Assembly: GCA_045660505.1 (NCBI GenBank)
Contig: JAZRDW010000010.1
Coordinates: 1-25,952 of the forward strand
From: Christensenellaceae bacterium
GTDB taxonomy: Bacteria; Bacillota; Clostridia; Christensenellales; Borkfalkiaceae
DNA: 25,952 nt
Direction of reading: 5' to 3'
The notes below the pieces were generated by a model. That model was given only the letters and a program-made list of their open reading frames with translations, was not told where the DNA came from and searched no databases. Position 1 is the stretch's first letter, and every line of letters begins with the position of its first letter. Position numbers and translations under genes: made by a program. Below, piece after piece: positions 304 to 20,228 of the stretch.

Positions 304-335
304 TTTTAGTCCTTTTTGCTTTGTTATACACCCAT

Positions 336-364
336 AGTATATAGTATTAAATTACTAATGTCAA
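336..364 (-). promoter_or_regulatory. sigma70-type promoter for the leftward gene at <1..303
   Basis: TTGACA (364-359), 17-nt spacer, TATACT (341-336). The spacer contains the inverted repeat TAGTA-N6-TACTA (342-357). Confidence 0.8.
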
Positions 365-388
365 GTACAAAAATAAAAATAATTTTCC

Positions 389-417
389 TTGATATTCCAA
401 TAGATACATAATACAAT
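389..417 (+). promoter_or_regulatory. sigma70-type promoter, divergent from the 336-364 promoter
   Basis: TTGATA (389-394), 17-nt spacer, TACAAT (412-417). Confidence 0.65.
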
Positions 418-423: not shown

Positions 424-480
424 TACCTACTTGTATATCAGTCATAACCCACAGTTCCCCCATCCTTCCTGTGGGTTTTT
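424..480 (+). ncRNA. Candidate small RNA 1 (about 57 nt) with CU-rich hairpin loop
   Basis: Lies directly downstream of the 389-417 promoter and ends in an intrinsic terminator whose loop is TTCCCCCATCCTTC. No plausible plus-strand ORF. Confidence 0.5.
446..480 (+). terminator. Intrinsic terminator
   Basis: Perfect 9-bp stem AACCCACAG/CTGTGGGTT (446-454/469-477), 14-nt loop, T-run at 476-480. Confidence 0.7.
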
Positions 481-486
481 ATATTT

Positions 487-527
487 AATAAGTGATAATT
501 TCATAAATGTGTGATAATAAGTGATAA
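487..527. repeat. Short direct repeats (putative protein-binding sites)
   Basis: AATAAGTGATAA at 487-498 and 516-527, plus a third core GTGATAA at 511-517, in an AT-rich intergenic tract. Confidence 0.6.
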
Positions 528-552
528 ATTTCTGGTGGATTGCTTTATATAT

Positions 553-593
553 GCAGAATAACTGGGCTTTTTAGTAGTCCAGTATTCTGTTTT
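553..593 (+). terminator. Hairpin with short T-tail, probable plus-strand terminator
   Basis: GCAGAATA-(A bulge)-CTGGGCT / AGTCCAG-TATTCTGT. G-U wobbles fit the plus-strand RNA. TTTT follows at 590-593. Confidence 0.5.
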
Positions 594-619
594 AACGGTA
601 GGCACGTCTGCCTGATGTA

Positions 620-3600
620 TTAGTCTGTAATCTTGATGCGATTAAAGACAATTCCTAACCAATGGTTGATTGTTGGGTCTATGCCGTCTAATCCCCATGT
701 GCGTTCAATCTTTCCGCCTATACCGGTCTTAAACCCTAAATCAATCGATTCTATATCTGTTTCTGCCCCTGTGGACTTGATAACTGGCTTTGCAATCTGT
801 TTTACCAGTGTTGGGATGAGTTTGTTGGCTTGGTTATATACTGTGCCTGCTGCCCAACCTGTTGGGTTCTTTGTTGCATAATTCAATCTATTATCTACCA
901 ATTCGCCAATTAACGGTACTGAACCCACTGTTTCCAGTATTTCTACCTGTCCGCCATGTAATGCGCTCATAAATACACGCATCGGGGCTTCAAGTACGCC
1001 TAACGAGTTTAATTTCAACCAGTAGCCACCAATACCGATGCTGTCGTATGGTTTGTTAGGATTATACTTTCCGCCCTTGTATGGCTCTTCATAGTCACAG
1101 AATGCACCGGCTATCAATGCTAACATTGCCAACCCGATAAAGTGTGCTGTATCTGCTGCATCTTGGAACGATATTTCCTTGCCAACTATTTTCTTGTACA
1201 GTGTCACGCCTGCGCCAAATGGAGAACGTAAGCCCGATGCAATTATATTTGCTGGCGTTTTGATAAACGGTGCTATCAGTGTACCCAATTGCAGTTCATA
1301 GCCGCCCACAGATAAACTATTCAGCCCATCACGCATCTTATTCAATGCGCCTGCCAGTTTCCCATTCTGGGTAAATGTAGCAAATGCTGACATTGTGACT
1401 ATTTCTGCACGTTTTGCGTATAATGGATTTTCTTTGCCGTTGATTTTCTTTGGCTGTGTTGATGTGTACTGCTTGAATAGTTCTTTTGCTTTATTCACAT
1501 CGCCATTCGCATCACGACTTGCCATACGTGCAGCAATATCTAAATACGTTGGGATTCTAAACCAGTTATCTTCGGCTGCCAATGCTCTCATAGGTGCATC
1601 GTATATTTTCTGCCAACCTTTCGCATCTGGGTCAAGTGGCTTATACTTTTCCCCATGGACTAAGGTTGGGTCTGTTGGCGTTATCATTGATGTCAAGTTC
1701 ATGAACGTTGCATCATATACCGCCTTGATACGTGCTTTTTCTGCATCTATGTCCGCCTGTGGCACGATGTTTTTACCATAATGTGCTGCAATAGCCGGTC
1801 TTAACATTGCCTGTTCTGCGGTATTTGAGAATATGTTAGTCACGTGTGTTGAAATGCCTGACAACATAGCACGTGGTGCGTATGAATTGATTGCTCCACT
1901 TAAAACTGTCTGTCTTGGGTCTGCAGAGTGTACCAATTCCGACCATTCACGCATTTTCTTTGCTGCTGCACTGGCTGTGGCAGGGTTCTTTGAGTTCAAG
2001 TCCTGTGATGCTTTTTCTGCCTGCGGGGCTAATGCCAATAACTTGCCTTGCATTTTGGTGTCTGGCTCTGCTTTGGCAATATCTCTGCGTACCAATCTCT
2101 TGGCATATTCTACAAATGCTTCACGTGTCTTGCCCGACTGTGTTAAATCTAACTGGTTCAGAATCGTTGTATCTTCTTCGCCTGCGAACTTTACACTTGC
2201 TTCGGCCACCAATGCTTTCAATGCCTGTTCTCTGCTCATAGAACCGTTGTCAACTGCATCAGCATACTTTGCACACAGTGCTTCAACGTCATTATTGAAC
2301 TTTGTAATTGAATCTGCACCACGTCCTGCGTACTTATATGCTGCCGATTCGGTCATTGCAGCGGTCAATCTGCGGTATCCGTCCAAATATGTCTGGTATG
2401 AACCGTCTTGTGCGTGCAATCCTAAGGTTGTACCTGCTTCTGAACGTGTCATAGCGATATTATGCATATATCTGAATCCTAAATCGCTTTTAGAATCAAC
2501 CTTATCAAACTCCATTACTGCTAAAATAAGCGTTTCTAGGTCGATTCCTGTGTCATTTAAGGCAGGTTTACCCATTAAAGCGACTTCACGTGCGTGTTCT
2601 GCGTTCTTTTTGACGTATTCACGTGCTTTTTTAATCATTTCATCACGCTGATGACGTTTGCCCTGTTTGAACCAACCTTTATCTTCTGGCAGTTTTTCCA
2701 CCGTCAACCCTGAAACATCATCATATTTGGTGTATTCTGCGTTGATTCCTGCTCTGGTTTCGGTTGGCAATTCATCTACTGCGGATTCATACAGTGCTTT
2801 ATCTGCATCCGTTTGGTCTTTTATCGCTTTATTTATCTGCTCTGTGCGTTCTTTTATTACCTGTGGGGTACTTGGTACTGTTTCGCCCGATTCGCTTACA
2901 GGATTGCTTGCCTGCTCACGTGCAGGGGATGTTGGCAGGGCAGGTAATGTGATATTTCCATACCATACGTTGAAGAAATCCATTGCTGCCTTGTCCAGTA
3001 TAGGATAAACAACCTTGCCGTTCTTATCACGATAGCCGATATTCAGTAATGATTTATACTTTTCTGGTATCCAGTTCAAGTATCCTGTGATTGGCAGTGT
3101 TGCACCGTCTGGAACGTTTGCTAACCCTGTGATGATTGCTTCGTTCATAGATGCCCAGTTTTCCTGTTGTTCACGTGTCAATGTGTCCTGATTCGCATTT
3201 ATGCCCAGTATATCAAACAATCTCTGTGTTTCGTCTAACCACTCTTGGGCCACAGGATAACCTTTCTGCGCCTGTTTGAACAGTTGGAACGTGTTATTCA
3301 ACCAGAAGTGTGATAATTCGTGTGGCAGAGTTGTAGTGTTGAAATTACGCCCTAACACGATAACATTTAATTCTGGGTCGTACATACCGTTGGCTTGACT
3401 GCGCTGGAACAGTTGATTCCCAAGTTCGTCAAACTTTTTACGCAATACTTTTACATCTTTATCGTTGAATATTACAAAGCAACGACCGTCTTGTTTGCCC
3501 CAGTATGTAATACCTTTAATACCGTATTTTTCAAGTAATAATGATGCTTTTTTGTCGGATTCTCTTGTAATTTTATATGTTATTTCAGAATGATTGTTAT

Positions 3601-6600
3601 CATCTCTATTTAGTTCTTTTGATATAGAGTCGTATATTTGTTTTCCTGTTAAAGTTGACCACTCTTTTAATATGTTTGATTTATCAAAGATTCCTTGGTT
3701 GGTTTTTGACCATTCATCAAATCCCTTTTGACCTAATTTTTCTTTCAGCCCTTTAATTAAACTGTCTTGGGCTGTGTTTTTTTTGCTGTCTATGTATTTT
3801 GCTACTTCTGCAAGTTTTTCTTTAACAAATTCTGACTGTTCATCAAATGTCTTTTGTTCATCAAGCAATACGTCCATTTCTGGTATATCTACTTCGTGGA
3901 CTTGCCCCTTTGGTTCTATGTATTTTAACAAATCAACATTCATATCTTCTAACAATGACAGTGTTTTTTTGTATGCTTGTATGTCTGTGTTGCCTTCAAC
4001 AAACCACTCTTCGCTATGTTCAGAACGTTTGGCAGTAGATAATAAATCTTCAATATCTTTTATGCGTGCGATTATCCATCGTTCTGTTGCGTTTTTACCT
4101 GTGTCAGTTAAATGTTTTAATGTAAGCCCGTCAATATCTTTATACTTTGTTTCTGGCACTGGCGTACCATTATAAAAATAATTATTTGAACCACGTTTTT
4201 CGTCTGCAATAAATGTTTTACGATAATTTTCTGCAATCTGTGGGTCAAGTGCATAATATAGCCCCCAACCGTGTGCCTGCGCCCCTTCGCCTGTTCCTAT
4301 TGCTTCCAATGATGGTCTATCATAGTCAATACGTGAACCTGCGTATGCAGATTGGAAAAGCGAACCGCTTTCTGATGCTTTCCATTCTTCAAAAGCACCA
4401 ACATTTACATCTGCTAATTTACCGCCTTTTAATCTGGTTTTTTGATTTGAAACTTTATCTTGCGCTTGTAGTTCCTTAATCTTTGCTACCATTTCAGGTA
4501 CAGATACGGATTTTGCATCAAAATTAGCGACTATATTATGTTTGTGTTTTTTCCCTATTTTTGATGCGCTTATTCTAATCTGTCGGGTTTCTTCGCCTTT
4601 CTTGATTTTGATATAAACTGCACCGTGGTCTGATATATCATTAGCGTTTTCTGCCTGTATGCCACTTTCTGTTAATGATTTTATAACTTCTGTGCGAATC
4701 GCTTTTAATTCTGATTCGGGTATTATTTCTCGTGCATCAAAAGCGGGTTCTTGCTGATCATTCTGTGATATAAACACGGCAACCAAATCTTTATCTATCG
4801 CTGTATCTCCGTCAAACTGTGTAGGATAGATTTCTTTTAATGTTTGGAATAATAGGTCATCTTTTGTGAACTGTGTATTAGATTCTGCACGTTGGATATA
4901 GGACTGTAAGAAAGCGCTAATATCGCCTGTGTGCTGTGCAAAAACCATATTATACATCAGTGCGTTTTCTGCAAATGTGCCGTCTTGCTGTACAAACTGC
5001 TTGAATTCGCCCTTGTGTTTCATTTCCAACATACGACTTAAAGCATTTTGCATATCTGCACGCAATCCCAATTCTGGATGTGCTGCATCAAACGCCATAA
5101 TCTGCTGTCCGTATTGAACGATGCTTTCAATCGCTTTAACTGTCATGCCATTGGATGTCATCAACTGGTCGAACAATCTTGTATCGCCATCACACAACCA
5201 CGCAACAATCGCATTATTATAGCGTTTCTGGGCTGTTTTTGCATCAACCGTTGCATCTTTCTTGGATATGCTCTGTGTAAATTCGGTTGCAGATTGTTTT
5301 TTAGCCACTGTCTTGGCATCTTTGAACGATTGTGCAGTATCTAGTCCAATCTGTTGTTTTTTGCGTTCTGTGGCTACGTCTTGTGTCTTTTCTATGGACT
5401 GTTTGCTCGTTAATAACTGTTGCAGAATACCTTTCTTGGTTGTCAGGTCATTTATTATGCCACGCAACTGTTCTACACGCTTTGGGTCTGTCTGTAAGGT
5501 AGTTTTCTTTGCGTTTTCAGCCCTTAATTCTGCTCTTGCTGTTTTCAGGTCGGCATTTACACTTTCAATCTTTGATTTTATTTGCTTTGATGTGCGTAGT
5601 TTCTGTGGTTTTAACGACAGCATATTGCCATGAACTTCAATCTCAGCCAAGTTTAAGATGTCAGACGTTGGAACTTGTGCCTTATCTGCCTGTCTTAATA
5701 CCTGTCCGGCAATATCAGATGCAACATAAGTGGCATAATCTAATCTGCTTGCTTCTGTGTATGCAGTTCCTTCTTCGATTGCTGATTTTCTTTCAATTCT
5801 GCCATCTTCAAGAATCACAAATGGGTCTGTGTCTGTCCAACCTGCGGATGTTAATGCACTGTCTATCTTTGCGACTAATGAATCAAATGGACTTCCAATC
5901 TTTTCTTTCAGTGAATTTACTGTGCCGATTTCCTTAATAAGTGCTGATTTGCCATCGTCAATAAGTGTTGTAGCCAGTTTTACCGCATCTTCATCAGAAT
6001 ACCCCTGACGTTTGAACATGCCGGCAATCTTTGAACGGTTGACATAGTACAATCCACCACCAAATGGCCCACCTAAAATACTGCCGTACATGGCACTGGT
6101 TAAAGCATCGTGTAAAAACTCTTTTTCTGTGCGTGTTTCGCTACCTGCAACATTACCCAACATAAATGCGGATAGTTCTTGCAGTGCTTCTTCTGCACCT
6201 TCGCCAATTGCACCTAATGCGGCTTGCTTTAATGCACGTTTTGCACCAGTTTTTACAATTGCTTTTTCGGCCATACGTTCAACACCAAGTTTGCTTTCAA
6301 TAAAACCTGATATTGCACCGTGGGTCATTGCCCATAAAGTATCGCCGGCTGCGTTGTATCCACGCATGCCATAGTTGTCTTTGTAGTACTTTTCAGCCCA
6401 CTCTTGTGATGTTTCGCCTGCTGTTTGGATTCCACCTAAAATACCAATGCCAGTACCGCCAGTTAAATAGCCAATAACAGCATACGCCCCAACTTGACCT
6501 GCCATACCAACCCATTTTGTGATGTCTGAGTCTGCTACACCTTCGTATTCTTCTGTGATTGCTCGTGCCTGCTTGGTTGCTAACATAGAACGCACGCCGG

Positions 6601-6934: not shown

Positions 6935-6943
6935 TTTAATCCC

Positions 6944-8524: not shown

Positions 8525-8527
8525 TGT

Positions 8528-9361
8528 TTAGCCCCCTATCAAATAGTTAATACCAGTTTTAGCAATATCCCAACCAGCCGCTTCCCAATAATTTCTGCGT
8601 TGACGTGATGCTATACGATTGCTGCGTGCATAGTCAAGGTCAAGTGCCAGTTTTTGAATCTCTGCATTGCTACGTTGTATCGCAAAATCCTTACCCATAT
8701 CCATTGCACCCTTTTCTTTTATGCCTTGGATAGCACCTGATGTTGGATCAACGTTCTTGGATGCAGTAATTGCATCTAAATCTGCCATACTTTCACGATA
8801 ACGTTCCATTAACAGTGCTTCTGAGTTCTGAATATTGGTATCGATTATCTTTTTTTGTACTTCGTATTGTTCCTTTGTGGCGGCTACTTCATCGGCATAG
8901 TCGTTCATTTCCAAACCGCCCATAATAGTAGAACCAATGCGTGCGACTGCTGAAAATGCGTTTTGCTGTGCTGCACGTTTTAATCTTGTGTTTTCAATCT
9001 CGGTTATACTTTGTGTCTGAGTGTTTAACGCATTTAATAAAGCCTGTGTATTATCTGTGGTATCCAATCCCTGTGTCTGTGCAACAGTCATTTCTGCCAC
9101 TTGTGCAGGTTCAATTGGTGTCATTTTGGGCTTTACTAGGTTGTTTGTAAGCAACCAGTTTTGGAATTTTGCTTCCTGTGGTGTAACAGGTGTGCGCATT
9201 TCTGGTGGCACAGGACTAGACATCAATGAAATTGCATCTATGTTTTCCACAGTTGAACTTACAACTGGTGTGCGTGCCGTTTCAACCTGCGGTGGGGTTG
9301 TTGGGCGTTTTAACGCCTTATTCCAAGCCACAAGAACATCATTTGAGTATTTCAGAGCCAT
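8528..9361 (-). CDS. Internal virion protein (gp14-like position)
   Basis: 277 aa. Pro/Thr-rich N-terminal half, then a Gly/Ala hydrophobic patch and a Q/A/N-rich coiled coil. Immediately follows tail tubular B with a TGATG overlap. Confidence 0.6.
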   Translation of the reverse strand: MALKYSNDVLVAWNKALKRPTTPPQVETARTPVVSSTVENIDAISLMSSPVPPEMRTPVTPQEAKFQNWLLTNNLVKPKMTPIEPAQVAEMTVAQTQGLDTTDNTQALLNALNTQTQSITEIENTRLKRAAQQNAFSAVARIGSTIMGGLEMNDYADEVAATKEQYEVQKKIIDTNIQNSEALLMERYRESMADLDAITASKNVDPTSGAIQGIKEKGAMDMGKDFAIQRSNAEIQKLALDLDYARSNRIASRQRRNYWEAAGWDIAKTGINYLIGG

Positions 9362-12195
9362 CAGTATTCAATCTCCACTTCCATAGATAATATTTCAACA
9401 GGGTATATGTCATTTTCAATAGTAAATGTACAATCCCTTGTTGGTCTTTGTGGTCGTACGTATGATACCAAATTACCTTTCCTACGTCCATATTTTTTAT
9501 TTATTGTTAATGCATCGTGTCGGCTTTCGCTTGTCAACGCAATATCAATCCTAGCAATAGACTTGTATTCCGACATTGTAATACCACCGATATTCATTGG
9601 ATTTGAGTGGAATACTTGGTGTATATTATAACCTATTTCAGATATTCCTTGTGGTTTGCTTGGAATTGTTATCTGATTGTTTTCGCAAGTGTAAGCATCC
9701 ACAAATTCGCCATTTTCATCATATACGTTCAGTAATGTGTTCTGATATTGTGGCAATTCCAGTGTGATTACACCCGATTCTTGGTTATACTGGAATAATC
9801 TTGTAGAGTGTGCTGTTTTTTTGCTCTGGTCTATGCGTTCCAGTGTTGTATAACCTGCACGACTGCTCAATAACAAGACGTTTTCTTCGTTCTGTACTGA
9901 TTGTAGGAACTTTACCCCTGTGGCACTTCTGCGACAGAATCCTTGAATATTGTGGTCTTGCAGATAGTTTCCAATAATCAAATTACCATTTGCATCACAG
10001 ATATACAACAATGTGTCGTCTTGTGAATCACGTCCACGCTTTAAGAACAAATCATGAATTTCAACATCCAACAAATCTGTGAACATTGAAATATATGGTG
10101 TCATATAACTTGCGGATTGTTCGTTATAGATAAACCCAATGATTCCCTTGCCGTTTTTAGGACAGAATAAAGTTGTTCCATTGGCTGAAATAATAGGTTT
10201 AACACCGTTTGTACCCATTTGAGAGTTGCGCACAAATCCAGTTGTTCTTGTAATTGTCTGTGAATCCATTAACCATTCAGACACGTTTGTAAATATCTGT
10301 ATGCCCTGATTTAAGCAGAAAGCACGTATAGATTCTTTTTGGTCTGAACCGATAACCAACTGGAAAGCAGATGTTGATAAATAGTCATCTGTAAAGTTGT
10401 CGTATTCCCCAATATTAGAGAATAACACCTGTTCCTGATTATACTGCGTTCCAAAGATAACCAATCGTTGCTGATAGAATGTAATTAAATTAGGATAGTT
10501 CGTATCACTGGTTGGATTATCATCTGTATTTGGCAACGCGCCGCTTAAAGCAGGTGTCATTGACATTGTAATCTTAAAGCCTTTTGCGGGCGCATCTTTG
10601 GTATAAACTTTGTCAAAGCCTACAATGGTTGGGCCTGATATTTTTGTAACAGAGTACTCTTGACCCGATGCAGTTCCTTCTATATCTGTAATTCTAACAA
10701 CGCCTATTGCAGATTCTGAATCAAAATTAGTTCCAAGTAATTTAGATTGTGCATATTTGGTTGGGTCAAGTGTTGCTGGTGCTGTTATTTTGAATAGACT
10801 TGTGCCTGCTGGTGTAATATTTATAATCCCTGTTGCTGCTGATACCGCAAACCCAGTTGTCGGATATTTTGTATCTTCTCCGACCGACAAATAAAACCAT
10901 CCACCTACATATTCATAAGTTTCATTGTCCCACAAATTATTTGTTATTGTCGTTGTATCTGATGTATTTATTGTCGTAAAGATTTTAACATATCCGTTGC
11001 CTGAATTTTTTGCAATAGCCCCCGGGTCTGTCGCATCTCCATCTGTGCCTGTACTGCGATATGAACTAATTCCACCATAAGTTCCACCCCCATTACCACC
11101 GTATATAACTGGAACTACTGTGCTTTTAGAGCCGCCCCATTGTCCAGCACCGCCACAGGCTTCATATACAACGCCGTCTGCTACAACTGATGTAGAACCA
11201 CCACCACCACCGCCAATTCCTTCCGATATACTCCTTCCAGACGTTCCTGAATGGTATCCTGCGCCCCCAGAAACTCCGTTTGCGGCGGTAGCAACTATAC
11301 CTGTTATTGTTTTGTTTGAAACTTCTAATGTCTTACTAAGAACGCTACCTAAGCCTACACGCCCATAATCAGAGCCTTTAACAGATTTGCTACCACCAGC
11401 CCCAGCAAATTGTATTTCTATAACATTATATTCATTTGGTATGGTATAAGAATATTCCCCTGGTGTTGTATTCTTGTACAATAACATAGGGCCATTAGGA
11501 TAAAAATCCATTGGCCCGACCCAACCATCATTAGTTTTTTGATACACAGACCAAGGAAATGTTTCACTTGGTATATTTTCCGTCTGGTTGGGCTGAACAT
11601 AAGTTCCTACTATCCAACCAGTGTCTAATGTTGGTAAAATTGTATTTGCTTCTTCTTGTGAGTTTATTGTTTCTTTGGTTCTATATACCGATATTTCTGC
11701 ACTTGGTTTTACAACATTAGTCACTTTCATAACATTTTTAGCAGGAATAATGTAAATGCTGTATGATAATTTGTTGTTTGTAATACCGATTCGTACCAAC
11801 GGATTGTCGCCAGTAGCCAACAACACCAATTCTTCCTGCTGTGCTATGTTAGAACGTTCATAATTCTCTTCTGTGATGTATGGAAATGAAATCTGGTCTA
11901 ACTGGTTGCCCTGATAATCAAATAAATACAGTTTTTGATTTGTTGCATCAAATGCCAGTGTTGCTTCTTTGTTATCTGATAAATGGATAGTGTGTAGTTT
12001 TACCTTGGCATCCTTACCAAAATTGAACATAAATTCAGTACCGGCAACTGTCTGCAAAGCACCGTATTTAGTGTTGTAAAAGTTGGTTATTTCCTGTCCA
12101 GAATCGTCTAAAATACCAATATCGGTACGTTCTGCGAGGTTCTTGCTGATTTGCCCCTTAGAGATTTTAAGGTATTTTTTTACACTTCTAGCCAT
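9361..12195 (-). CDS. Tail tubular protein B (nozzle) with Gly-rich insertion
   Basis: 944 aa. N-terminal motif NFYNTKYGALQTVAGT; YPNLITFYQQRLV...VLFSNIGEYDNF and AFQLVIGSDQKESIR...GIQIFT are typical of podovirus nozzle proteins. Follows tail tubular A. Confidence 0.8.
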   Translation of the reverse strand: MARSVKKYLKISKGQISKNLAERTDIGILDDSGQEITNFYNTKYGALQTVAGTEFMFNFGKDAKVKLHTIHLSDNKEATLAFDATNQKLYLFDYQGNQLDQISFPYITEENYERSNIAQQEELVLLATGDNPLVRIGITNNKLSYSIYIIPAKNVMKVTNVVKPSAEISVYRTKETINSQEEANTILPTLDTGWIVGTYVQPNQTENIPSETFPWSVYQKTNDGWVGPMDFYPNGPMLLYKNTTPGEYSYTIPNEYNVIEIQFAGAGGSKSVKGSDYGRVGLGSVLSKTLEVSNKTITGIVATAANGVSGGAGYHSGTSGRSISEGIGGGGGGSTSVVADGVVYEACGGAGQWGGSKSTVVPVIYGGNGGGTYGGISSYRSTGTDGDATDPGAIAKNSGNGYVKIFTTINTSDTTTITNNLWDNETYEYVGGWFYLSVGEDTKYPTTGFAVSAATGIINITPAGTSLFKITAPATLDPTKYAQSKLLGTNFDSESAIGVVRITDIEGTASGQEYSVTKISGPTIVGFDKVYTKDAPAKGFKITMSMTPALSGALPNTDDNPTSDTNYPNLITFYQQRLVIFGTQYNQEQVLFSNIGEYDNFTDDYLSTSAFQLVIGSDQKESIRAFCLNQGIQIFTNVSEWLMDSQTITRTTGFVRNSQMGTNGVKPIISANGTTLFCPKNGKGIIGFIYNEQSASYMTPYISMFTDLLDVEIHDLFLKRGRDSQDDTLLYICDANGNLIIGNYLQDHNIQGFCRRSATGVKFLQSVQNEENVLLLSSRAGYTTLERIDQSKKTAHSTRLFQYNQESGVITLELPQYQNTLLNVYDENGEFVDAYTCENNQITIPSKPQGISEIGYNIHQVFHSNPMNIGGITMSEYKSIARIDIALTSESRHDALTINKKYGRRKGNLVSYVRPQRPTRDCTFTIENDIYPVEILSMEVEIEY

Positions 12196-12207
12196 TTTTA
12201 CACCCCA

Positions 12208-12804
12208 TTAAACAAATTCAAACTGGTGGATAGATGAACTGATGTCATCATGAACATCCATTTCAAAATCTTTATTGCCTAATATAGTCAAATCTATATC
12301 GGCTTTCTGGATTAAGAAATTCTTTTGGTCTGCACCAACGCCACCTAAATCAGCGGCTTCTGCTGCAATAAATACTTCCAAATATTCACGTACCCAAGGG
12401 TCTAAATCTTCTTCCGATACAGAACCGTCTATGTACGCCATTGTGAATTGTTTAAGGTTAGTGCGAATCGAACGACCAACGATAGATACGCTGTTGTGTG
12501 CATTGTTTCTGCGTTCTGGATCAACCCAAAATCCAACAGCAGATAAGAAATTACATGGTACGCACGCTTCATAACGATAACGACCGTCTTTTGGGTCTAT
12601 TGATTCGTCTGTGTCAATCGTGACGTACTTTATAGCACTTTTCCAAGGATAGTTATTCAAAGCACGTTTCTTTAACGAATCATAGATTTTTAAGACCAAA
12701 TCTTCCGGACTGTTCTTTGTTATGTTCTCAAAATCTGGCAAGGTGTCATATTTCCAGTATTTTAAGAACATATTTGTTAAAAGTTCTTTCTTTGCTTCGT
12801 TCAT
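12208..12804 (-). CDS. Tail tubular protein A (adaptor/gatekeeper)
   Basis: 198 aa. ALNNYPWKSA...RYRYEACVPCNFL resembles the adaptor W-x-FA...Y-x-LP-x-D motif. Coupled to the portal by TAATG. Confidence 0.75.
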   Translation of the reverse strand: MNEAKKELLTNMFLKYWKYDTLPDFENITKNSPEDLVLKIYDSLKKRALNNYPWKSAIKYVTIDTDESIDPKDGRYRYEACVPCNFLSAVGFWVDPERRNNAHNSVSIVGRSIRTNLKQFTMAYIDGSVSEEDLDPWVREYLEVFIAAEAADLGGVGADQKNFLIQKADIDLTILGNKDFEMDVHDDISSSIHQFEFV

Positions 12805-14360
12805 TATGCGTTCCCTTGCTGTTCAATTAGTTTTGCCATTGCTTTGGATTGTTCTTTGTTAGAATCAACCTGCATCTGTGCGTTTTGCGCCTGCTGAACT
12901 GCCTGTGCTTGTGCTTGGGCATCTGCCTGCTGTGCCTTTGTGATTTCATCCGCTGTGCGACTGATTTCAACTGGCACATTCCACGCACGACCCAATCTTT
13001 CAAGTGTCTTATTGCGGTCAAGTGCCTGCCAGATTGCCTGTGGGTCAAAACTGATATTGTTGATATATCCTGTAATCTTCTGTATCAGATTGTTGTCCAT
13101 TGTTGCATCGTTGTTGATGTTGCATTCCAACATTTCATGCATATCTTCCAGTGTAAAGTTGACTGTGCCTGCGATTTCACGATTGAATATATCATCAAAC
13201 AAATCCCAACCGATGCCTTTCAGTGTATCTGTCAGCAATGCTACATTAACGTTCGCTGTTTCTCCATACGGTGTGATGCGGGCATTTACTTCTGCCGCTG
13301 TCATATCACGTGGAACGCTTGGTAATGTAGAATCCAAGAATGTTTCCTTAATTGCAATTTCTTCTGTCTGTAATTCCAGTTTGAAATCAGACCGATTCGC
13401 ACCAAGTGTTAATGGTTGGAATCCTTGCATATCACGAACCGTCAAGAACCCACCCGGTTTGAATGTTAAGTTCTTGCTTAATACATTTCCAGCAGTGGTT
13501 AAGAACATTGGGAATTGGAACGGTATCAGTTCCAAATTCGCCTTGATGAACGAATTCAATCTTTTCAATGCCGGCAATGCTTTTAATGCTACACCTGCTG
13601 AATATGGCATATCTGCAATTCTTCCCCAGTGGAATATGTGATATGGACTAGATTTATATATGCGTGTCAGCAGTGTTTCAGAGCCATAACGCAGATAATA
13701 TTCATACTGACGTGTCGATTCGTTGTAATACAGTACGTCATTAAGTTTGATTTCTTGATATTTTGTAGCACCATCTACACGAACACCACCGATTTCCTGT
13801 TTATTTGCTAATTCAGGCCATGTAATACCAATCTGATATGCTGGCATCTCAAATGAACGACATACCGTCTGATGCTGTTCTGTGCCTAATTTATACTGTG
13901 TAAATGGCAATTTCTTAAACTGTGTGCCATATAAGCCATCTTCACGCATAATAACGGCTGTACCTGCTGCCAAGTCATAATATGCATCGTGCAGTGTTTT
14001 ATCTAATCCTACACTTTCTTTTATTTCATTTACACGACTGCTCATACCTGCTGCAAAATCACGCAACTGCTGTATATAATCAGATGATAATGATTTCTTT
14101 GGTTCAAAGTTAAAATATGCCTGTCCAATAGGGGATAATTTGTTTTGGATACGTGCTACAAATATATCCGTACCTGTTTTACCTGCCTGTGTGAACAGAC
14201 GAACCTGTTTTAAGTTCCCCGGATTGCCGCCCTTTGGTCTATAAATAATATTGCGTTCAGGTTGCGTATAGGCATTTGCCATATAGTATTCGCTATCCCA
14301 AGACGTTTTGTTGCTGTCGCACGTTGCGACCAGTTTATTCAATTCAGTAGAACTTAACAT
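12804..14360 (-). CDS. Portal (head-tail connector) protein, T7/Bbp21-like
   Basis: 518 aa. Typical size and motifs (DLAAGTAVIM, YSAGVALKALPALKRLN, PRDMTAAEVNAR) and a Q/A-rich C-terminus. Confidence 0.88.
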   Translation of the reverse strand: MLSSTELNKLVATCDSNKTSWDSEYYMANAYTQPERNIIYRPKGGNPGNLKQVRLFTQAGKTGTDIFVARIQNKLSPIGQAYFNFEPKKSLSSDYIQQLRDFAAGMSSRVNEIKESVGLDKTLHDAYYDLAAGTAVIMREDGLYGTQFKKLPFTQYKLGTEQHQTVCRSFEMPAYQIGITWPELANKQEIGGVRVDGATKYQEIKLNDVLYYNESTRQYEYYLRYGSETLLTRIYKSSPYHIFHWGRIADMPYSAGVALKALPALKRLNSFIKANLELIPFQFPMFLTTAGNVLSKNLTFKPGGFLTVRDMQGFQPLTLGANRSDFKLELQTEEIAIKETFLDSTLPSVPRDMTAAEVNARITPYGETANVNVALLTDTLKGIGWDLFDDIFNREIAGTVNFTLEDMHEMLECNINNDATMDNNLIQKITGYINNISFDPQAIWQALDRNKTLERLGRAWNVPVEISRTADEITKAQQADAQAQAQAVQQAQNAQMQVDSNKEQSKAMAKLIEQQGNA

Positions 14361-14371
14361 AGTCTAAATCC

Positions 14372-14962
14372 TTACCCTAAAACAATTGAACCTACATTCA
14401 AATCTGCGCTTGTAGCGCCACCACTGCCTGCTTGATAACCTTTTGTAATATTTTTAGTCAGTGATTTCTTTGTTGCCAACAGTTCAGACCTGCGTGCTTG
14501 ACGTGATTTTTCTTCTTCTGCTGCGACTTTGGCATTATATTCTGCATTTGCTTTGGCATATGCCGCTGCATCTTCTTTTTCTTGTTCTATTGCTTTATAT
14601 TCTTGGTGGCCTGAATATCCCGCATAAGCCGCTGCACCTATCGCTTCCCCGGCACTAAGAACTCCATGAAGTGTTGGTGCCGCTGTCGCTGCTGTTGCCC
14701 CAGCCGCCGTTGTGCCTGCTGCTGTTGCACCCCAAGGCCCTAAAACCATTGCAGCTGCCATTAGTGCTACATTATCCCATCCACCAACATAATCAACTGC
14801 TTTTTTTATATCTCTGTCTGCTGACGATATGATATTAGATACAAAGTTGTGTTTGCCTAATACACCTTCTGTTGCTTCTGCAATAGTTCTGCCTAAACTA
14901 CGTTTCCCTCTTACAACGTCCCAACTTTTTGATAGCCAACCGTTATGTCCAAGTAATCCCAT
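14372..14962 (-). CDS. Hypothetical virion-associated protein with Ala/Gly hydrophobic segment and coiled coil
   Basis: 196-aa ORF directly upstream of the portal, a position often held by small ejected virion proteins in podoviruses. Confidence 0.6.
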   Translation of the reverse strand: MGLLGHNGWLSKSWDVVRGKRSLGRTIAEATEGVLGKHNFVSNIISSADRDIKKAVDYVGGWDNVALMAAAMVLGPWGATAAGTTAAGATAATAAPTLHGVLSAGEAIGAAAYAGYSGHQEYKAIEQEKEDAAAYAKANAEYNAKVAAEEEKSRQARRSELLATKKSLTKNITKGYQAGSGGATSADLNVGSIVLG

Positions 14963-14985
14963 AATAGCACCTACATATATTGTTT

Positions 14986-15006
14986 GGGGGTGTATTTACC
15001 ACCCCC
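14986..15006. other. GC-rich intergenic hairpin without U-tract
   Basis: GGGGGTG-N7-CACCCCC just after the stop of 15012..15263. Confidence 0.55.
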
Positions 15007-15011
15007 GATTA

Positions 15012-15263
15012 TTACATTGCTGTCAGAGTCAATACGCCCTGTGCATCGTCTTTCGCATAGTATTCAGTTTCTGAACGACCAGTTACCAAACCCTGTTCAT
15101 CACGAGTGATTTCAACTTTGATAACTTTATCCCCAGCACCAACACCTGCATCTTTTGGAATATAACCTGCGCCTGTGACAACGTCAGATGTTTCCAATGT
15201 CCAGATGTGAGATAATGGAGAATAACTAGAAACGTGTACTAATTTTGTTCTATCAAAAGCCAT
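15012..15263 (-). CDS. Small beta-rich protein next to the capsid gene (possible decoration/cement protein)
   Basis: 83 aa with strong RBS AAAAAGGACTAAAA. Located immediately downstream of the major capsid gene. Confidence 0.65.
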   Translation of the reverse strand: MAFDRTKLVHVSSYSPLSHIWTLETSDVVTGAGYIPKDAGVGAGDKVIKVEITRDEQGLVTGRSETEYYAKDDAQGVLTLTAM

Positions 15264-15285
15264 TTTTAGTCCTTTTTAAGTTAAT

Positions 15286-15307
15286 CTGGGGCTGTTTCCA
15301 ACCCCAG
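15286..15307 (-). other. GNRA-capped hairpin after the capsid gene (weak terminator or 3' stabiliser)
   Basis: Minus-strand CTGGGGTTG-GAAA-CAGCCCCAG: 9 bp with one G-U, followed by ATTAACTT rather than a clean U-tract. Confidence 0.6.
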
Positions 15308-15318
15308 TGGGTTAAACC

Positions 15319-16236
15319 TTACTGCAATGGAGTTGCATCGATTTTGATACCGATTACACCGGTCTTATCGATAATCGCAGCACCAGAAGAACCGTTGGTC
15401 TTAAATACCAATGGATTGCCTTCTTTCGTCAAGTCTTGGAAGATACGTGACTGTAATGTGTCGTTCATACCAAAACCAACACGGCTACGTTTCCAAGCAA
15501 AGCCCAAGATTGAGCCATCTTCTGCGATTGGCAAACCAACTTTGTTGTTCGCCTGTTTCTTCGCCATAAAGCCAATCATGAAGCCACGATATGGTGTCCA
15601 ACGCAACATGTTGTCTGCATCGCCAGACTTGCCAACGTTGTCAACCAATGCTTTACCATTAGTCAAAGACCAGATTTCATAGAACTTTTCGTCCTGCATC
15701 AGTGTGTACTGTGCTTCGAATGGCAACAACAGGTAGCGGTCAGCCATACCCCAGTTGTTATTACCAGCCAACAAGTTCAGTTCGTCGATAGTTTTTACTG
15801 TGAATGGTGTGTCAGCAGAGCCGATTTCCATTTCTGTGTCGTCATACTGTGCCAATGCTTCCAGAACGTCAACTGTAAAGCGATTTTCCATTGCGTTATA
15901 AACCTTTTCAGCGGCCATAGCACGGATAGAACTTTCGCTGTTTGTCGAGTTCAAATCTTCTGGGAACAGTTTAGCAGATGCTTCATACGCATGAATATCT
16001 GCATTTACAGTGCGAACCAACAGGTCATCTGGGGCAATTGGAGAACCCTTAGATGTACGTTTTGCCATACCGTCTGTATCGCCGATTGGGAAACGAATCT
16101 GATTACCTGTGATAACACCTTTGTTGTTTGTTGCCATACGCAAACCGTGTGTTGCGTTCAGCATCAGGCGTTGAACTTCTGGGTCAAAGTACTTTACGTC
16201 CAACAACCCCTGTGAAAAACCTTGTAAATCTGACAT
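15319..16236 (-). CDS. Major capsid protein (HK97 fold, podovirus type)
   Basis: 305 aa. GVITGNQIRFP...G, DRYLLLPFEAQYTLMQD and FMIGFM segments are typical of podovirus coat proteins. Has a dedicated strong promoter, RBS AAGGAC and a downstream hairpin. Confidence 0.82.
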   Translation of the reverse strand: MSDLQGFSQGLLDVKYFDPEVQRLMLNATHGLRMATNNKGVITGNQIRFPIGDTDGMAKRTSKGSPIAPDDLLVRTVNADIHAYEASAKLFPEDLNSTNSESSIRAMAAEKVYNAMENRFTVDVLEALAQYDDTEMEIGSADTPFTVKTIDELNLLAGNNNWGMADRYLLLPFEAQYTLMQDEKFYEIWSLTNGKALVDNVGKSGDADNMLRWTPYRGFMIGFMAKKQANNKVGLPIAEDGSILGFAWKRSRVGFGMNDTLQSRIFQDLTKEGNPLVFKTNGSSGAAIIDKTGVIGIKIDATPLQ

Positions 16237-16335
16237 TTTATTAGTCCTTATGTTAAAAAGTTGTTAATTGGGAGTGTTGTCAAAACGGTTTTAGAGAATT
16301 CTATAAAAGATTGTTCTCTCGCTTTGGTCGTACTA

Positions 16336-16363
16336 ATTATAGCAAATATTAAAATTCTTTCAA
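16336..16363 (-). promoter_or_regulatory. Strong sigma70 promoter for the capsid/structural operon
   Basis: TTGAAA (16363-16358), 16-nt spacer, extended -10 TGcTATAAT (-10 hexamer at 16341-16336). Confidence 0.75.
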
Positions 16364-16365
16364 AT

Positions 16366-16441
16366 AAAAAATTGGCGCATGCAGAGAGAGAATGTCGTAG
16401 AGAAAAGAGAACCGATAAAGTTCCTGGGTTAAGCACGCGCC
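16366..16441 (-). ncRNA. Candidate small RNA 3 (about 70-76 nt), end-paired with pyrimidine-rich interior
   Basis: Predicted +1 (G16441) is the first base of GGCGCGTGC, which pairs with GCATGCGCC (16382-16374; G-U on this strand only). AATTTTTT follows. The interior contains CTTTTCTCT...TTCTCTCTCT. Confidence 0.5.
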
Positions 16442-16447
16442 TTTTTT

Positions 16448-16477
16448 ATTATATAGCATTTTTATTTGGTATGTCCA
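16448..16477 (-). promoter_or_regulatory. sigma70-type promoter overlapping the HNH 3' end
   Basis: TGGACA (16477-16472), 18-nt spacer, TATAAT (16453-16448). Confidence 0.55.
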
Positions 16478-16734
16478 TGTCTTTTTGCTTCTAAGTCTAA
16501 CCACAACTTATACTCTTCAAAAGTTAGTGCGCCTTTCTGCGAATTGCATGTTTTATGAGCCATGCGCCAGTTGCTAGAATCATTTCTTCCTGAACGGCTA
16601 ACAGGTGTTAAATGTTCGATGTTATAATCTTTGATTTTATAAATGGGTTTTCCACAAAGACAGCAATATGCTATTTTCATTTCGATTTGCATTTCACAAA
16701 TCTTCTTGAATTGTTTTCTTGTTATTTCTGGCAT
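16462..16734 (-). CDS. HNH endonuclease
   Basis: 90 aa: CCLCGK...NIEHLTPVSRSG...NWRMAHKTCNSQKG, a classic Zn-binding HNH signature. RBS AAAAGGA. Confidence 0.92.
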   Translation of the reverse strand: MPEITRKQFKKICEMQIEMKIAYCCLCGKPIYKIKDYNIEHLTPVSRSGRNDSSNWRMAHKTCNSQKGALTFEEYKLWLDLEAKRHGHTK

Positions 16735-16766
16735 TTTTTATCCTTTTAACAAGAAACATTACCGGT

Positions 16767-16904
16767 TTACTTCTCTTGACACCCTAAATCTTCTTCATAT
16801 ATTTCTTCATATAATCCCATAGAAAGCATAGCAATTGCCGCTGCAAGCATCACAACGCTGAACGCAAGAAAAACTATTAAAATGATAGATAATGCTAATA
16901 TCAT
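16767..16904 (-). CDS. 45-aa single-pass membrane peptide (not in ORF track)
   Basis: Hand translation: MILALSIILIVFLAFSVVMLAAAIAMLSMGLYEEIYEEDLGCQEK. ATGA overlap with the stop of 16901..17161. Confidence 0.6.
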   Translation of the reverse strand: MILALSIILIVFLAFSVVMLAAAIAMLSMGLYEEIYEEDLGCQEK

Positions 16905-17161
16905 TTCTTTTTAATCACTTTCTGTGCGGTTTCTGCTATAAATTCTTTTGCTTCAAATAATCTTGTAAATATGTAAGCAATCAGTCCAACAAGGGCAGGC
17001 GAAGTTCTAACCACCGCTTCCCAAAGTGTGACTTCGCCCACAGTGTCCATAGACCAAATTGCGGTAAATGGTGTTAGCAATAAACCTAAAAATAAAGAAA
17101 AACGTGCAATACACGGTTCATTTACATCGTCTAAGAATAAGCCTTTTATGAATTTTCTCAT
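16901..17161 (-). CDS. Putative holin (two TM segments, basic C-terminus)
   Basis: 86 aa with two hydrophobic helices and a KVIKKK tail. ATGA-coupled to the upstream gene. Confidence 0.6.
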   Translation of the reverse strand: MRKFIKGLFLDDVNEPCIARFSLFLGLLLTPFTAIWSMDTVGEVTLWEAVVRTSPALVGLIAYIFTRLFEAKEFIAETAQKVIKKK

Positions 17162-17529
17162 AATCTTTTTCCTAACAGTTCGAATACAAGTTTTTTTGTT
17201 ATTGTTGTATCTTCTTTAATGGCTTCAAGTTGCGCACTTATTCCGGCATTTAATACATTTAAGTCAGATATATTTTCGTCTATACGTTTAAAATGTTCAT
17301 CTGATTTAGTTATATGTTCGGATAAGTGTTTCTCACAATCAAGTATTCTTGCAGGAATTTCTGTACTAGTTTTGTAATACCAAGTAAAGACAGACAATAG
17401 CAACGCACCAACAGGTAATACCCATTGCCAGTTATTCCAAATCTTTTTTAGTCCTTGCATTATAAGCCCTGCTACCTTCCTATATAGGATGATAGCAGGA
17501 ATTAAGAAAAATAACAACTTATTTTTCAT
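17158..17529 (-). CDS. XhlA-like/holin-associated membrane protein (TM plus coiled coil); alternative start at 17460
   Basis: WQWVLPVGALLLSVFTWYY TM followed by a heptad coiled coil. Second in-frame Met at 17460. Confidence 0.6.
   Translation of the reverse strand: MKNKLLFFLIPAIILYRKVAGLIMQGLKKIWNNWQWVLPVGALLLSVFTWYYKTSTEIPARILDCEKHLSEHITKSDEHFKRIDENISDLNVLNAGISAQLEAIKEDTTITKKLVFELLGKRL
17468..17499 (-). promoter_or_regulatory. mRNA hairpin between the two possible starts of 17158..17529
   Basis: CCTGCTATC-A-TCCT-ATAT-AGGA-A-GGTAGCAGG: 13 bp with G-U on the mRNA strand, ending 7 nt before ATG 17460. Confidence 0.6.
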
Positions 17530-17732
17530 TAGACTTTATGTTTTTCGTCTTTCATAACAGTTTCAACCGCATAAGCCAATTCTAACAAAGCCTTCAACGT
17601 TTCTGCCACTTCCTTGCTTTTGTGCAAAGGCTGGTCGCCTGTTGCTGACAAGTGTGGGCGGACACGAGATTCATAGTCGCGTTGGACATAATTGCGTGCT
17701 TCATCTGTCATACGTCTGATATAGTCGTTCAT
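17529..17732 (-). CDS. Hypothetical helical protein, last gene of the Cys/Gly-rich cassette
   Basis: 67 aa, RBS AGGAGA. Confidence 0.75.
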   Translation of the reverse strand: MNDYIRRMTDEARNYVQRDYESRVRPHLSATGDQPLHKSKEVAETLKALLELAYAVETVMKDEKHKV

Positions 17733-17741
17733 AGCGTTCTC

Positions 17742-18089
17742 CTATCGTGCAAATTGGATACATTCAGGTGTGTCTTGCAACATAACATACGTCGCGCCAC
17801 CAAGACCGTTCACAACATAATTGCCTTTGTATTTTTTACGTGGGCATAAACGATTGGTGTTGATTTGTATGCCAAGATTGTTTACCAATGCAACTGCTGT
17901 ACCATTTACGTTGATTGTGTAAGGCAAAGGGTCGCCAGTGACAACCGTGTTCGGGTTCACACATAACACAAACTCAAAGTAGTCCAAGTCGGATACATTG
18001 GTCGGGTTGGTTATTGTGATTTCAACACTGTCAGCACCTGCGGTTAATGCTGTGCCTTTGTGAAAGTATGGGTTATAGCAACAATTCAT
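17742..18089 (-). CDS. Hypothetical Cys-containing beta-rich protein
   Basis: 115 aa starting MNCCY, 5 Cys, alternating hydrophobic strand pattern. RBS AGGAGAG. Confidence 0.8.
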   Translation of the reverse strand: MNCCYNPYFHKGTALTAGADSVEITITNPTNVSDLDYFEFVLCVNPNTVVTGDPLPYTINVNGTAVALVNNLGIQINTNRLCPRKKYKGNYVVNGLGGATYVMLQDTPECIQFAR

Positions 18090-18108
18090 TTCACTCTCCT
18101 AAGACTTA

Positions 18109-18137
18109 GGTAGGGGCAGGAAGGAATTGCCCCCACC
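18109..18137 (-). other. GC-rich intergenic hairpin without U-tract
   Basis: Minus-strand GGTGGGGGCA-ATTCCTTCC-TGCCCCTACC: 10 bp with one G-U, just after the stop of 18145..18852. Confidence 0.65.
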
Positions 18138-18144
18138 AAACTGT

Positions 18145-18852
18145 TTAGTAGCCGAAGCCACAACCACCACATCCGTAAGCACCGTGGTTGCCACGAGCAG
18201 ATTCATAAGGACTGCAAGTGATATACGATGGTGTTGGGAATGGACGTAGAGTGTTAATCAGCGTTGCGTTTTGTGCCTGTTGCGACAACTGGAAGTTCGC
18301 TGTCTGCAAGTCACGGTCTTTGTCTGCCAACTTATCACGCAGATTCTGCATTGTGTTGGAGTTGATTAAAGCACGAGTTGTTTCCGCTTCGTTGTGGATT
18401 AAGTTTTCCAAACGGCAGCAACATTTTTCGTTGTCAAAACGAACTGCGTCTATATTGCGGTTTGTTTCGCAGCAACACTGTTGAGCAGCAAAGCGGTTTT
18501 CCGCAATCTGGTTGCCGATAGAACTGAATCCAGTCAGCAGATTTGTATTCTGGGCATAGAACCCATCACACAAGCCCTGTGTAATGCCGTCTAATTTTGC
18601 CAACACACGGTTGTCTGCGAAGCCTTGTGCCAAAGCAGCAGTGCCGAACGCACCGTTGCCACCACCGAATCCGCCGCCGAAGCCACCGCCCCAGCCGCCG
18701 CCAAAGATTAACGCCAGCAAGATTAAACCCAGCCAGTCGCCACCCAAGCCACTGCCGTAGCCACCAAATCCGCCGCCCATCAAGACAGGCATTGCAGGAT
18801 AACCATTGTTTCCAATGACCGCTGCAATATCGGATAAAGAGTATTTTTCCAT
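18145..18852 (-). CDS. Gly-rich membrane-anchored coiled-coil protein with two CCC motifs (function unknown)
   Basis: 235 aa: Gly-rich / TM (DWLGLILLALIF) / Gly-rich, then a coiled coil with QQCCCET and EKCCCR, ending YGCGGCGFGY. 10 Cys in total. Confidence 0.85.
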   Translation of the reverse strand: MEKYSLSDIAAVIGNNGYPAMPVLMGGGFGGYGSGLGGDWLGLILLALIFGGGWGGGFGGGFGGGNGAFGTAALAQGFADNRVLAKLDGITQGLCDGFYAQNTNLLTGFSSIGNQIAENRFAAQQCCCETNRNIDAVRFDNEKCCCRLENLIHNEAETTRALINSNTMQNLRDKLADKDRDLQTANFQLSQQAQNATLINTLRPFPTPSYITCSPYESARGNHGAYGCGGCGFGY

Positions 18853-18892
18853 TTTGTTTTCTCTTGGTTAATTGTTCTCAACCTTTCGGGAT

Positions 18893-19099
18893 TTATCTCA
18901 AACCGAGAGACTTTAAATCATCTTCGGTGAATCTTTTCTCGTTGATGTCTATGCCCTTTGATTTGGCACAGTTCAACAGAGTTTCCATTTGGGCTTTGGG
19001 ATTCTTGCCACGCAACATCTGGTTATACAGTTGCATCATAGGTGTTCCCTGAAACGACCCCGACATTGCCTGCTGTACTAATTGCTGTAATGGATTCAT
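18893..19099 (-). CDS. Hypothetical Q/M-rich small protein
   Basis: 68 aa MNPLQQLVQQAM... RBS-like GGGGCAGGG. The 5' end overlaps the upstream gene by 77 nt. Confidence 0.75.
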   Translation of the reverse strand: MNPLQQLVQQAMSGSFQGTPMMQLYNQMLRGKNPKAQMETLLNCAKSKGIDINEKRFTEDDLKSLGLR

Positions 19100-19451
19100 T
19101 GCCCTGCCCCTTTATTTTTTGTTCTATTTCGTCTAGTTTTGCCATAATCGCGCGGATTTCTGGCATTTGTTCTGTTGCACTTTCTTTCTTGTATGTTTCA
19201 AATTCGATGTTCCCATCCATATTCCATTGCCGGATATAGATTTCGTTAGATGACTTGTTTATGCCGATATATACCGTTCCGGGCATAATGTTGTAGTTCA
19301 CTAAATCGTTGGGATTTGAAACGAAGAAACACTGCACCTGTGGCTGTATGCCTTGCAGGTTTTGTATCGTCTGTGGTTGCGATTGCTGGTATTGTTGTTC
19401 CAGTTGTGCCAGTCGCATTGCAGGCGGTTGATAGTAAGGATAGTTGTTCAT
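19023..19451 (-). CDS. Hypothetical protein with Q/P/Y-rich N-terminus (start revised from 19571)
   Basis: RBS AAAGGAG 5 nt before ATG 19451 (MNNYPYYQPP...). The longer ORF-track start would run through a terminator. Confidence 0.8.
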   Translation of the reverse strand: MNNYPYYQPPAMRLAQLEQQYQQSQPQTIQNLQGIQPQVQCFFVSNPNDLVNYNIMPGTVYIGINKSSNEIYIRQWNMDGNIEFETYKKESATEQMPEIRAIMAKLDEIEQKIKGQGNESITAISTAGNVGVVSGNTYDATV

Positions 19452-19470
19452 ACTAACTCCTTTGTATGTT

Positions 19471-19518
19471 AGTATGATGAATCGTTTTTGGATAAAAATC
19501 TGTCCAACAAAAGACCAA
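19471..19518 (-). promoter_or_regulatory. Putative activator-dependent promoter of the cassette
   Basis: -10-like CATACT (19476-19471) with no recognisable -35. Direct repeats TTGGTC (19518-19513) and TTGGAC (19507-19502) lie 11 bp apart at about -54 to -38. Confidence 0.4.
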
Positions 19519-19545
19519 AAAAAGACCGCCGAAACGTCAGCGGTC
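19517..19545 (-). terminator. Intrinsic terminator
   Basis: GACCGCTGA-CGTT-TCGGCGGTC (9 bp, one G-U) followed by 7 T. Confidence 0.85.
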
Positions 19546-19572
19546 ATCCAACTTGGAAAGGAGATTTCCAAT
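19517..19572 (-). ncRNA. Candidate small RNA 2 (56 nt) with anti-SD loop
   Basis: Predicted +1 at A19572, then hairpin TTGGAAA-TCTCC-TTTCCAA, a 7-nt linker and the terminator. Confidence 0.55.
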
Positions 19573-19578
19573 AATCAA

Positions 19579-19607
19579 ATGTTAAGATAAATATCTTTTA
19601 TTGTCAA
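19579..19607 (-). promoter_or_regulatory. sigma70-type promoter inside the 3' end of the HTH gene
   Basis: TTGACA (19607-19602), 17-nt spacer, TAACAT (19584-19579). Confidence 0.65.
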
Positions 19608-20201: not shown

Positions 20202-20228
20202 GACATACCCCTTAATCTATACTAGATT

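Follow-up and report, generated by a model that had tools for sequence, protein, structure and literature searches.

Three promoter-hairpin units in an uncultured podovirus-like phage and their interpretation as intrinsic terminators

Promoter-proximal termination giving rise to short RNAs is common in virulent phages, as determined by ONT-cappable-seq, and in phiKZ an RNA of ~71 nucleotides (nt) is ended by T102 (PMC10914365). In lambdoid phages a constitutive promoter (PR') is followed immediately by a terminator (tR') with the late genes downstream, the short by-product being 6S RNA or StxS (PMC7547250). In phiKMV-like podoviruses an antisense promoter is present at the late/early junction, namely P001 of LUZ19 (PMC10914365). 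Three units recalling these arrangements, named U1, U2 and U3, are described here from contig JAZRDW010000010.1, which was analysed at its whole length of 25,952 bp (40.8% G+C; hereafter the window) and represents most of the ~37-kb genome of a podovirus-like phage. The convincing genes lie on the minus strand without exception across the window.

The three largest gaps between genes (304-619, 16237-16461 and 19452-19581) contain one unit each, and every unit consists of a hairpin with a T-run and, 6-33 nt upstream of the hairpin, a sigma70-like promoter scoring 10-11/12. Hexamers, hairpins and T-runs were located where a preliminary description of this DNA had placed them. The predicted start sites, taken 7 nt after the -10 hexamer, likewise agreed with it, falling at 16441, the first base of the U2 stem, and at 19572, one base before the U3 stem. 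The components of the units are:

389..417, plus strand: U1 promoter-like sequence TTGATA-17-TACAAT, 10/12 (promoter scan and local shuffles)
446..485, plus strand: U1 hairpin of 9 bp with a 14-nt CU-rich loop, and T-run; hairpin proper 446-477, T-run from 476 (folding, dG -12.3, z -3.1)
16448..16477, minus strand: U2 promoter-like sequence TGGACA-18-TATAAT, 11/12, the -35 within the last codons of an HNH gene (promoter scan and local shuffles)
16366..16441, minus strand: U2 fold, a terminator-type closing stem around an inner hairpin and a CU-rich strand, followed by T6 (folding)
19579..19607, minus strand: U3 promoter-like sequence TTGACA-17-TAACAT, 10/12 (promoter scan and local shuffles)
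19553..19571, minus strand: first hairpin of U3, weak, with 7 A/U-rich pairs and the loop UCUCC (folding, z -0.45)
19517..19545, minus strand: U3 intrinsic terminator with a 9-bp GC-rich stem (19545-19524), a 4-nt loop and T7 (folding; covariation in the closest relative)

A promoter of at least 10/12 lying 4-30 nt before the hairpin turned up in only 3.6% (U1), 0.5% (U2) and 2.6% (U3) of local dinucleotide shuffles. Promoter-like sites are at chance level overall (46 found vs 54 expected, both strands of the first 20 kb of the window), and the high-scoring ones concentrate at the gaps. In both phage contigs and the closest relative, a filtered scan returned promoter-then-terminator pairs only at U1, U3 and the U3 homologue, with none within genes; U2 was lost to the energy filter of that scan, its promoter-hairpin pair being seen in separate analyses. 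The promoter-hairpin architecture is thus real and non-accidental, and short transcripts of 55-76 nt are plausible because the promoter-to-terminator geometry is non-random. RNAs of this size would, as previously pointed out, escape gene callers. As in the virulent phages, the terminator lies within tens of nt of the promoter; unlike the RNAs reported there, which were sequenced and mostly lie in 5' untranslated regions of genes (PMC10914365), those of the window are predicted from the sequence, and U2 is followed by a second promoter.

The favoured interpretation, to which a probability of about 0.52 is assigned, is that the three units are intrinsic terminators bounding the transcription units of a phage which uses the host sigma70 polymerase throughout, the short RNAs being by-products or attenuated leaders. 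In all three a stable stem-loop is followed within 0-2 nt by a U-rich tract, the enclosed loop of U2 being unusually large. U2 and U3 lie downstream of a gene on the same strand, by 20 nt and 10-37 nt respectively, and U1 is downstream only of its own predicted promoter. The earlier wording "solitary" did not survive, since U2 and U3 are on the coding strand, 20 and 10 nt past stop codons, with both -35 hexamers inside the upstream open reading frames (ORFs). Like the intrinsic (Rho-independent) terminators of phage operon boundaries, the units have a stem-loop and U-tract after coding-strand genes, U2 stands directly before the next promoter and compensatory pairing is present; unlike these, the U2 stem encloses a 50-nt multiloop and U1 is on the non-coding strand. 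The phage's own promoters are of the consensus sigma70 type. The sigma70-like promoters upstream of the hairpins are probably active, and short terminated RNAs are therefore probably made; the efficiency of termination and the read-through are predictions. The units look like ordinary operon boundaries because it is only the transcription-stop hairpins that relatives conserve, the stems of U2 and U3 being conserved with covariation.

The closest relative examined is a circularly assembled 37.9-kb contig from a Candidatus Enterousia metagenome-assembled genome (MAG), here represented by loci L019, L025, L033 and L034; its capsid protein is 95% identical to that of the window and its DNA ~81% identical where alignable. 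The covariation counts below compare the window with this one close relative (L019). At U3, L019 keeps the promoter as TTGACA-17-TAATAT, 11 of the 12 hexamer bases being the same while 5 of the 17 spacer bases differ. The terminator stem shows one compensatory change from G-C to A-U, the other pairs being invariant. The first hairpin (-5.7 kcal/mol) is no more stable than its shuffles; L019 has a 5-nt insertion here and loses two of the six pairs, with only a weak, shifted stem as an alternative. Of the structures proposed previously, the hairpins with T-runs fold better than shuffles, and this hairpin does not stand out. At the equivalent junction (a small gene, then the homologue of gene 19451), a hairpin with U7 directly precedes the start codon in L004, L017 and L018, which are distant relatives; a terminator-like signal at this place thus characterises the family. 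No promoter of at least 9/12 was found between the U3 terminator and the ATG at 19451. Upstream of U3 one further promoter was identified:

20226..20254, minus strand: promoter TTGACA-17-TAAAAT, 11/12 (promoter scan)

It probably heads a three-gene operon closed by the U3 terminator. As a separate observation, a conserved 10-bp hairpin at 19446-19477 (minus strand) contains the start codon of gene 19451 and shows AAAGGAG in its loop; in L004, L017 and L018 the hairpin with U7 buries the ribosome-binding site instead.

Within the 9-bp closing stem of U2 (16441-16433/16382-16374) are an inner hairpin at 16424-16408 and a CU-rich strand of 25 nt, 16407-16383, that is unpaired; the T6 at 16371-16366 extends into the -35/UP region of the capsid promoter, which is located as follows:

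16336..16363, minus strand: capsid-gene promoter TTGAAA-16-TGnTATAAT, 11/12 (promoter scan; same place in all 14 lineages examined)

The fold (dG -19.7, z -4.3) is kept in L019 at 9791-9875 (z -7.3). All nine pairs of the closing stem hold there, two being changed on both sides and two on one side, and G-U pairs in the stem assign the function to the minus-strand RNA. The inner hairpin is present with a sequence unrelated to that of the window, the unpaired pyrimidine-rich strand measures 26 nt and the T-run again merges into the capsid promoter. No promoter counterpart of at least 9/12 was found in L019, and the gene upstream of U2 differs, encoding a 177-amino-acid (aa) NUMOD4/HNH_3 endonuclease. 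Conservation and covariation in relatives, which the preliminary description had made the test of the stems, therefore hold for the terminator stems of U2 and U3, and U1 is without a homologue. As a conserved set the three units fare less well: the closest relative has promoter plus terminator at U3, lacks the promoter at U2 and has no U1.

The HNH region beside U2 varies: a single 90-aa HNH gene is present in the window (16462-16734), and L019 has, at 8853-9739, an 88-aa HNH gene and in addition the NUMOD4/HNH_3 gene, which resembles a homing-endonuclease insertion. Past the 88-aa gene, at L019 9138-9200 (plus strand), lies a terminator-enclosed multi-hairpin, a third element of U2-like build. 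It scored 28.2 bits against the Rfam int-alpA RNA (RF02996), below the gathering score of 35.8, with the CUAG, CGAAAAG and CCUG junction motifs kept. The likeness consists of a terminator-type outer stem around inner hairpins; no unit of the window matches the family. A promoter-like site of 11/12 was also noted at 16776-16803 (plus strand, non-coding), within the gap that precedes the HNH gene. A small-peptide reading of U2 was rejected, the frame being lost in L019.

U1 lies at the late/early junction, where two further features were identified:

336..364, minus strand: early promoter TTGACA-17-TATACT, 11/12, of gene 303-1 (promoter scan)
553..594, not assigned to one strand: second hairpin, past the gene for a 2104-aa protein, with a plus-strand T-tail (folding; partly conserved in L025)

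The U1 promoter is divergent from the early promoter (364-336), and an A/T-rich upstream stretch is common to both. The U1 hairpin is a plus-strand terminator in an otherwise all-minus-strand genome, and the hairpin at 553..594 is probably the two-way terminator of the late operon. Promoter and hairpin of U1 are both absent from L025, and five further relatives having this junction (L028-L032) show no antisense promoter-terminator pair. Like P001 of LUZ19, the U1 promoter stands by itself on the opposite strand where the late and early regions of a one-strand podovirus genome adjoin; unlike it, U1 meets two terminators within 200 nt and is not conserved, the LUZ19 transcripts being long and extending over structural genes (PMC10914365).

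Two other observations were made at this junction. The stretch separating U1 from the late-operon end has three GTGATAA repeats (492-498, 511-517 and 521-527, plus strand), a candidate protein-binding array; unlike U1, the repeats are well conserved in L025. In addition, positions 303-366 (minus strand) and 2026-2093 (plus strand) of L035, a second contig of the same MAG also designated C180, carry a homologous promoter-plus-leader cassette (CTTGACATTAGTA..TAATACTATA.., then GTATAACAAA..AAAGGAC..ATG). The genes downstream of its two copies differ, being the first gene after the late operon in one case and the exonuclease gene in the other.

With the units taken as intrinsic terminators at boundaries, polymerase starting at the upstream promoters would mostly halt after 55-76 nt. 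U3 would end the operon of three small genes begun at promoter 20254 and limit the transcription entering the next cassette, the read-through fraction feeding the downstream genes; as no promoter follows U3, it would set entry into that cassette. U2 would end the variable or mobile HNH cassette and, lying against the -35/UP region of the strong family-wide capsid promoter, would insulate that promoter. Plus-strand transcription that leaves the region of the divergent early promoter and heads for the late-operon end would be stopped by U1 and the hairpin at 553-590.

Three points weigh against this interpretation. In U2 the stem surrounds a 50-nt multiloop, and L019 keeps both the inner hairpin and the pyrimidine-rich strand of that loop, which exceeds the needs of a plain terminator. 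The L019 version is the poorer terminator because its T-run starts 5 nt past the stem. Finally, selection for a promoter-terminator module itself is hinted at, because such modules recur before the capsid promoter in three non-homologous lineages. In every lineage a strong capsid promoter was found (TTGACA or TTGAAA, 16-18 nt, TGnTATAAT-like) with the -10 ending 86-110 nt before the capsid ATG and a structured leader. Just upstream of it, three other, non-homologous sequence types have a promoter of 10-11/12 with a strong terminator 50-72 nt further on. These are the L003/L005/L015/L020 clade, L021 and L007; six lineages are without the module. The module is accordingly recurrent, yet neither universal nor homologous.

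Several side observations concern the same region. The capsid promoter and a leader of ~95 nt with a hairpin (GAGAGAA/UUCUCU in the window, 16236-16363, minus strand) are conserved in 14 lineages (L001-L022), and in the L003/L005 clade the leader stem covaries (GACGG/CCGTC vs GATGG/CCATC). Directly ahead of the module, ~330-400 nt upstream of the capsid ATG, L003, L005, L015, L020 and L021 have a tiny ORF whose product would be very basic (MPCGKKKGGKK or MPCKGKGKKK) and whose Shine-Dalgarno sequence is strong. In the L003 group, L022, L030 and L031, the capsid promoter is preceded by a multi-copy cassette in which a covarying hairpin (TCGACA..TGTCG) comes after TTTGTCAAYACTATATATAG; the cassette is seen again past the large virion gene.

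A first alternative, considered unlikely, is that the units are plain terminators only, the promoter-like hexamers being accidents of A/T-rich gene ends and of the A-tracts flanking two-way terminators, with no short RNA made. The chance-level number of promoter-like sites and the lack of conservation of the U1 and U2 promoters are consistent with this, as is the observation that U2 folds also as a plus-strand terminator, the sequence TATAAT-A6 being the reverse complement of the plus-strand U-tail. It is opposed by the sites of 10-11/12 placed 4-30 nt before the hairpins, each with a local-shuffle frequency of 0.005-0.036, and by the U3 hexamers kept in L019 despite the spacer changes.

The units, above all U3, could also be conditional terminators, that is, checkpoints of the lambdoid PR'-tR' type at which a constantly firing promoter gives mostly terminated transcripts, and timed read-through into the downstream cassette depends on an RNA element or a factor of the phage. 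The principle is demonstrated by StxS and 6S RNA (PMC7547250), and U3 fits best: a terminator comes right after its promoter, both are kept in L019, the gene downstream is without its own promoter and the junction in distant relatives carries a terminator-like hairpin. The small gene immediately upstream of U3 may be helix-turn-helix-like, its 91-aa product giving a weak winged-helix match (E 0.004) and no PHROG match. Unlike in the lambdoid region, no Q-, N- or put-like component was identified, and an alternative antiterminator fold is not evident. U1 has no downstream gene, and U2 does not gate the capsid genes because the independent strong capsid promoter follows it. This arrangement is judged improbable.

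The preliminary description had proposed a dedicated set of trans-acting riboregulators or decoys whose exposed CU-rich strands pair with purine-rich ribosome-binding sites or bind a pyrimidine-binding protein. In its favour are the predicted starts at or beside the first stem base of U2 and U3, and the complementarity of CUCCUUU in U3 to the AAAGGAG of the next gene. The coding strand is purine-rich and has just four long pyrimidine tracts in 26 kb, among them the unpaired strand of U2, whose counterpart in L019 is also unpaired and pyrimidine-rich. Against it, the CU tracts paired no better with the 52 phage start regions than their own shuffles, mononucleotide shuffles pairing equally well or better in 25% (U1), 98% (U2) and 23% (U3) of cases; the U1 tract is unremarkable on its pyrimidine-rich strand. 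The complementarity to ribosome-binding sites is a composition effect, and pyrimidine-rich loops near terminators need a composition control before they are read as anti-ribosome-binding-site seeds. Furthermore, the U3 loop hairpin is neither significant nor kept, L019 is without the U2 promoter and none of the six relatives with the junction has U1; termination, not a riboregulator set, is what relatives conserve.

The idea of a sponge for Hfq or another RNA-binding protein was weakened because the putative host genus yielded neither Hfq (0/13 genomes, the MAG and 12 of the genus) nor CsrA (0/9, the MAG and 8 of the genus); controls were positive, as were other families of that order, and several of the host-genus genomes searched are 94-96% complete. 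StxS uses Hfq (PMC7547250), and the host genus of the window phage appears to be Hfq-less; Rho was present in 9/9 genomes of that genus. A search of Rfam 15, suggested in the preliminary description, returned no match at E<=1 over the whole window and only noise around U2. The 79%-complete MAG showed no CRISPR array, its sole array-like repeat being a 69-nt coding repeat, and against this array-less MAG no likeness of the units to a CRISPR repeat was seen. A trans-acting role of the short RNAs is unsupported, and the riboregulator proposal as a whole is quite improbable.

A modest probability of a dedicated RNA function is retained because of the U2 multiloop, the U-tract offset in L019 and the int-alpA-like element of L019. 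The U2-type element, a terminator-enclosed RNA with a long unpaired pyrimidine strand, might then be a selected device and not a boundary, which is considered very doubtful. Two mechanisms are possible: a short late-region RNA could act on the capsid mRNA leader or on a pyrimidine-binding factor (Rho, S1) of an Hfq-less host, or the terminated RNA polymerase could be handed directly to the adjacent capsid promoter. The U2 fold and the promoter-terminator modules of the three other lineages are the only mildly interesting parts of the set. That U1 alone is the antisense RNA of a type I toxin-antitoxin-like pair, covering the start of a hidden 32-codon hydrophobic ORF (445-347, minus strand), is hardly credible: the U1 RNA is complementary to a loop-displayed purine-rich stretch and the ATG at 445, but the ORF has no Pfam family, overlaps the early promoter, has the hydrophobic residues expected from A/T-rich DNA and is absent, with U1, from L025.

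The remaining features of the phage are as follows. The parent MAG is fragmented (1.18 Mb, 33.5% G+C) and Candidatus Enterousia-like, the phage being assigned to this host by binning. The window encodes the major capsid protein (15319-16236, minus strand), portal, T7-type tail-tube proteins, the 2104-aa virion protein and the HNH endonuclease. Contig C180 (10,080 bp) represents the remaining third of the phage genome, with genes for large terminase, endolysin, exonuclease and methylase. The nearest capsid protein homologues (P0001-P0003) are 98%, 92% and 81% identical; IMG/VR, JGI metagenomes and GTDB MAGs supplied the more distant relatives, whose capsid proteins are 50-65% identical. No near cultured phage was found by megablast or tblastn, the portal being only ~21-23% identical to those of Pelagibacter and Methylophilales podophages. 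Exact-pattern scans of IMG/VR for U3 and the capsid leader gave no match, and a capsid protein scan of 400 genomes of the host order revealed no further copies. No tRNA or tmRNA genes were found, and short-word BLAST of the three gaps against the MAG returned A/T-rich noise only. The ORF at 22233-23051 (minus strand) contains a 78-nt tandem repeat in three copies (about 22470-22700) and would encode a repetitive fibre-like protein; at this region the closest relative has one 914-aa protein in place of several window ORFs.

Candidatus Enterousia is a gut alphaproteobacterium with a reduced genome. If the units are indeed intrinsic terminators at operon boundaries, this phage relies on consensus sigma70 signals, and the promoters, terminators and operon boundaries given here would provide a usable transcription map for an uncultured phage group linked to this bacterium. 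Promoter-proximal terminated RNAs are common in phages and their function is little explored; the U2 fold by the capsid promoter offers a concrete candidate.

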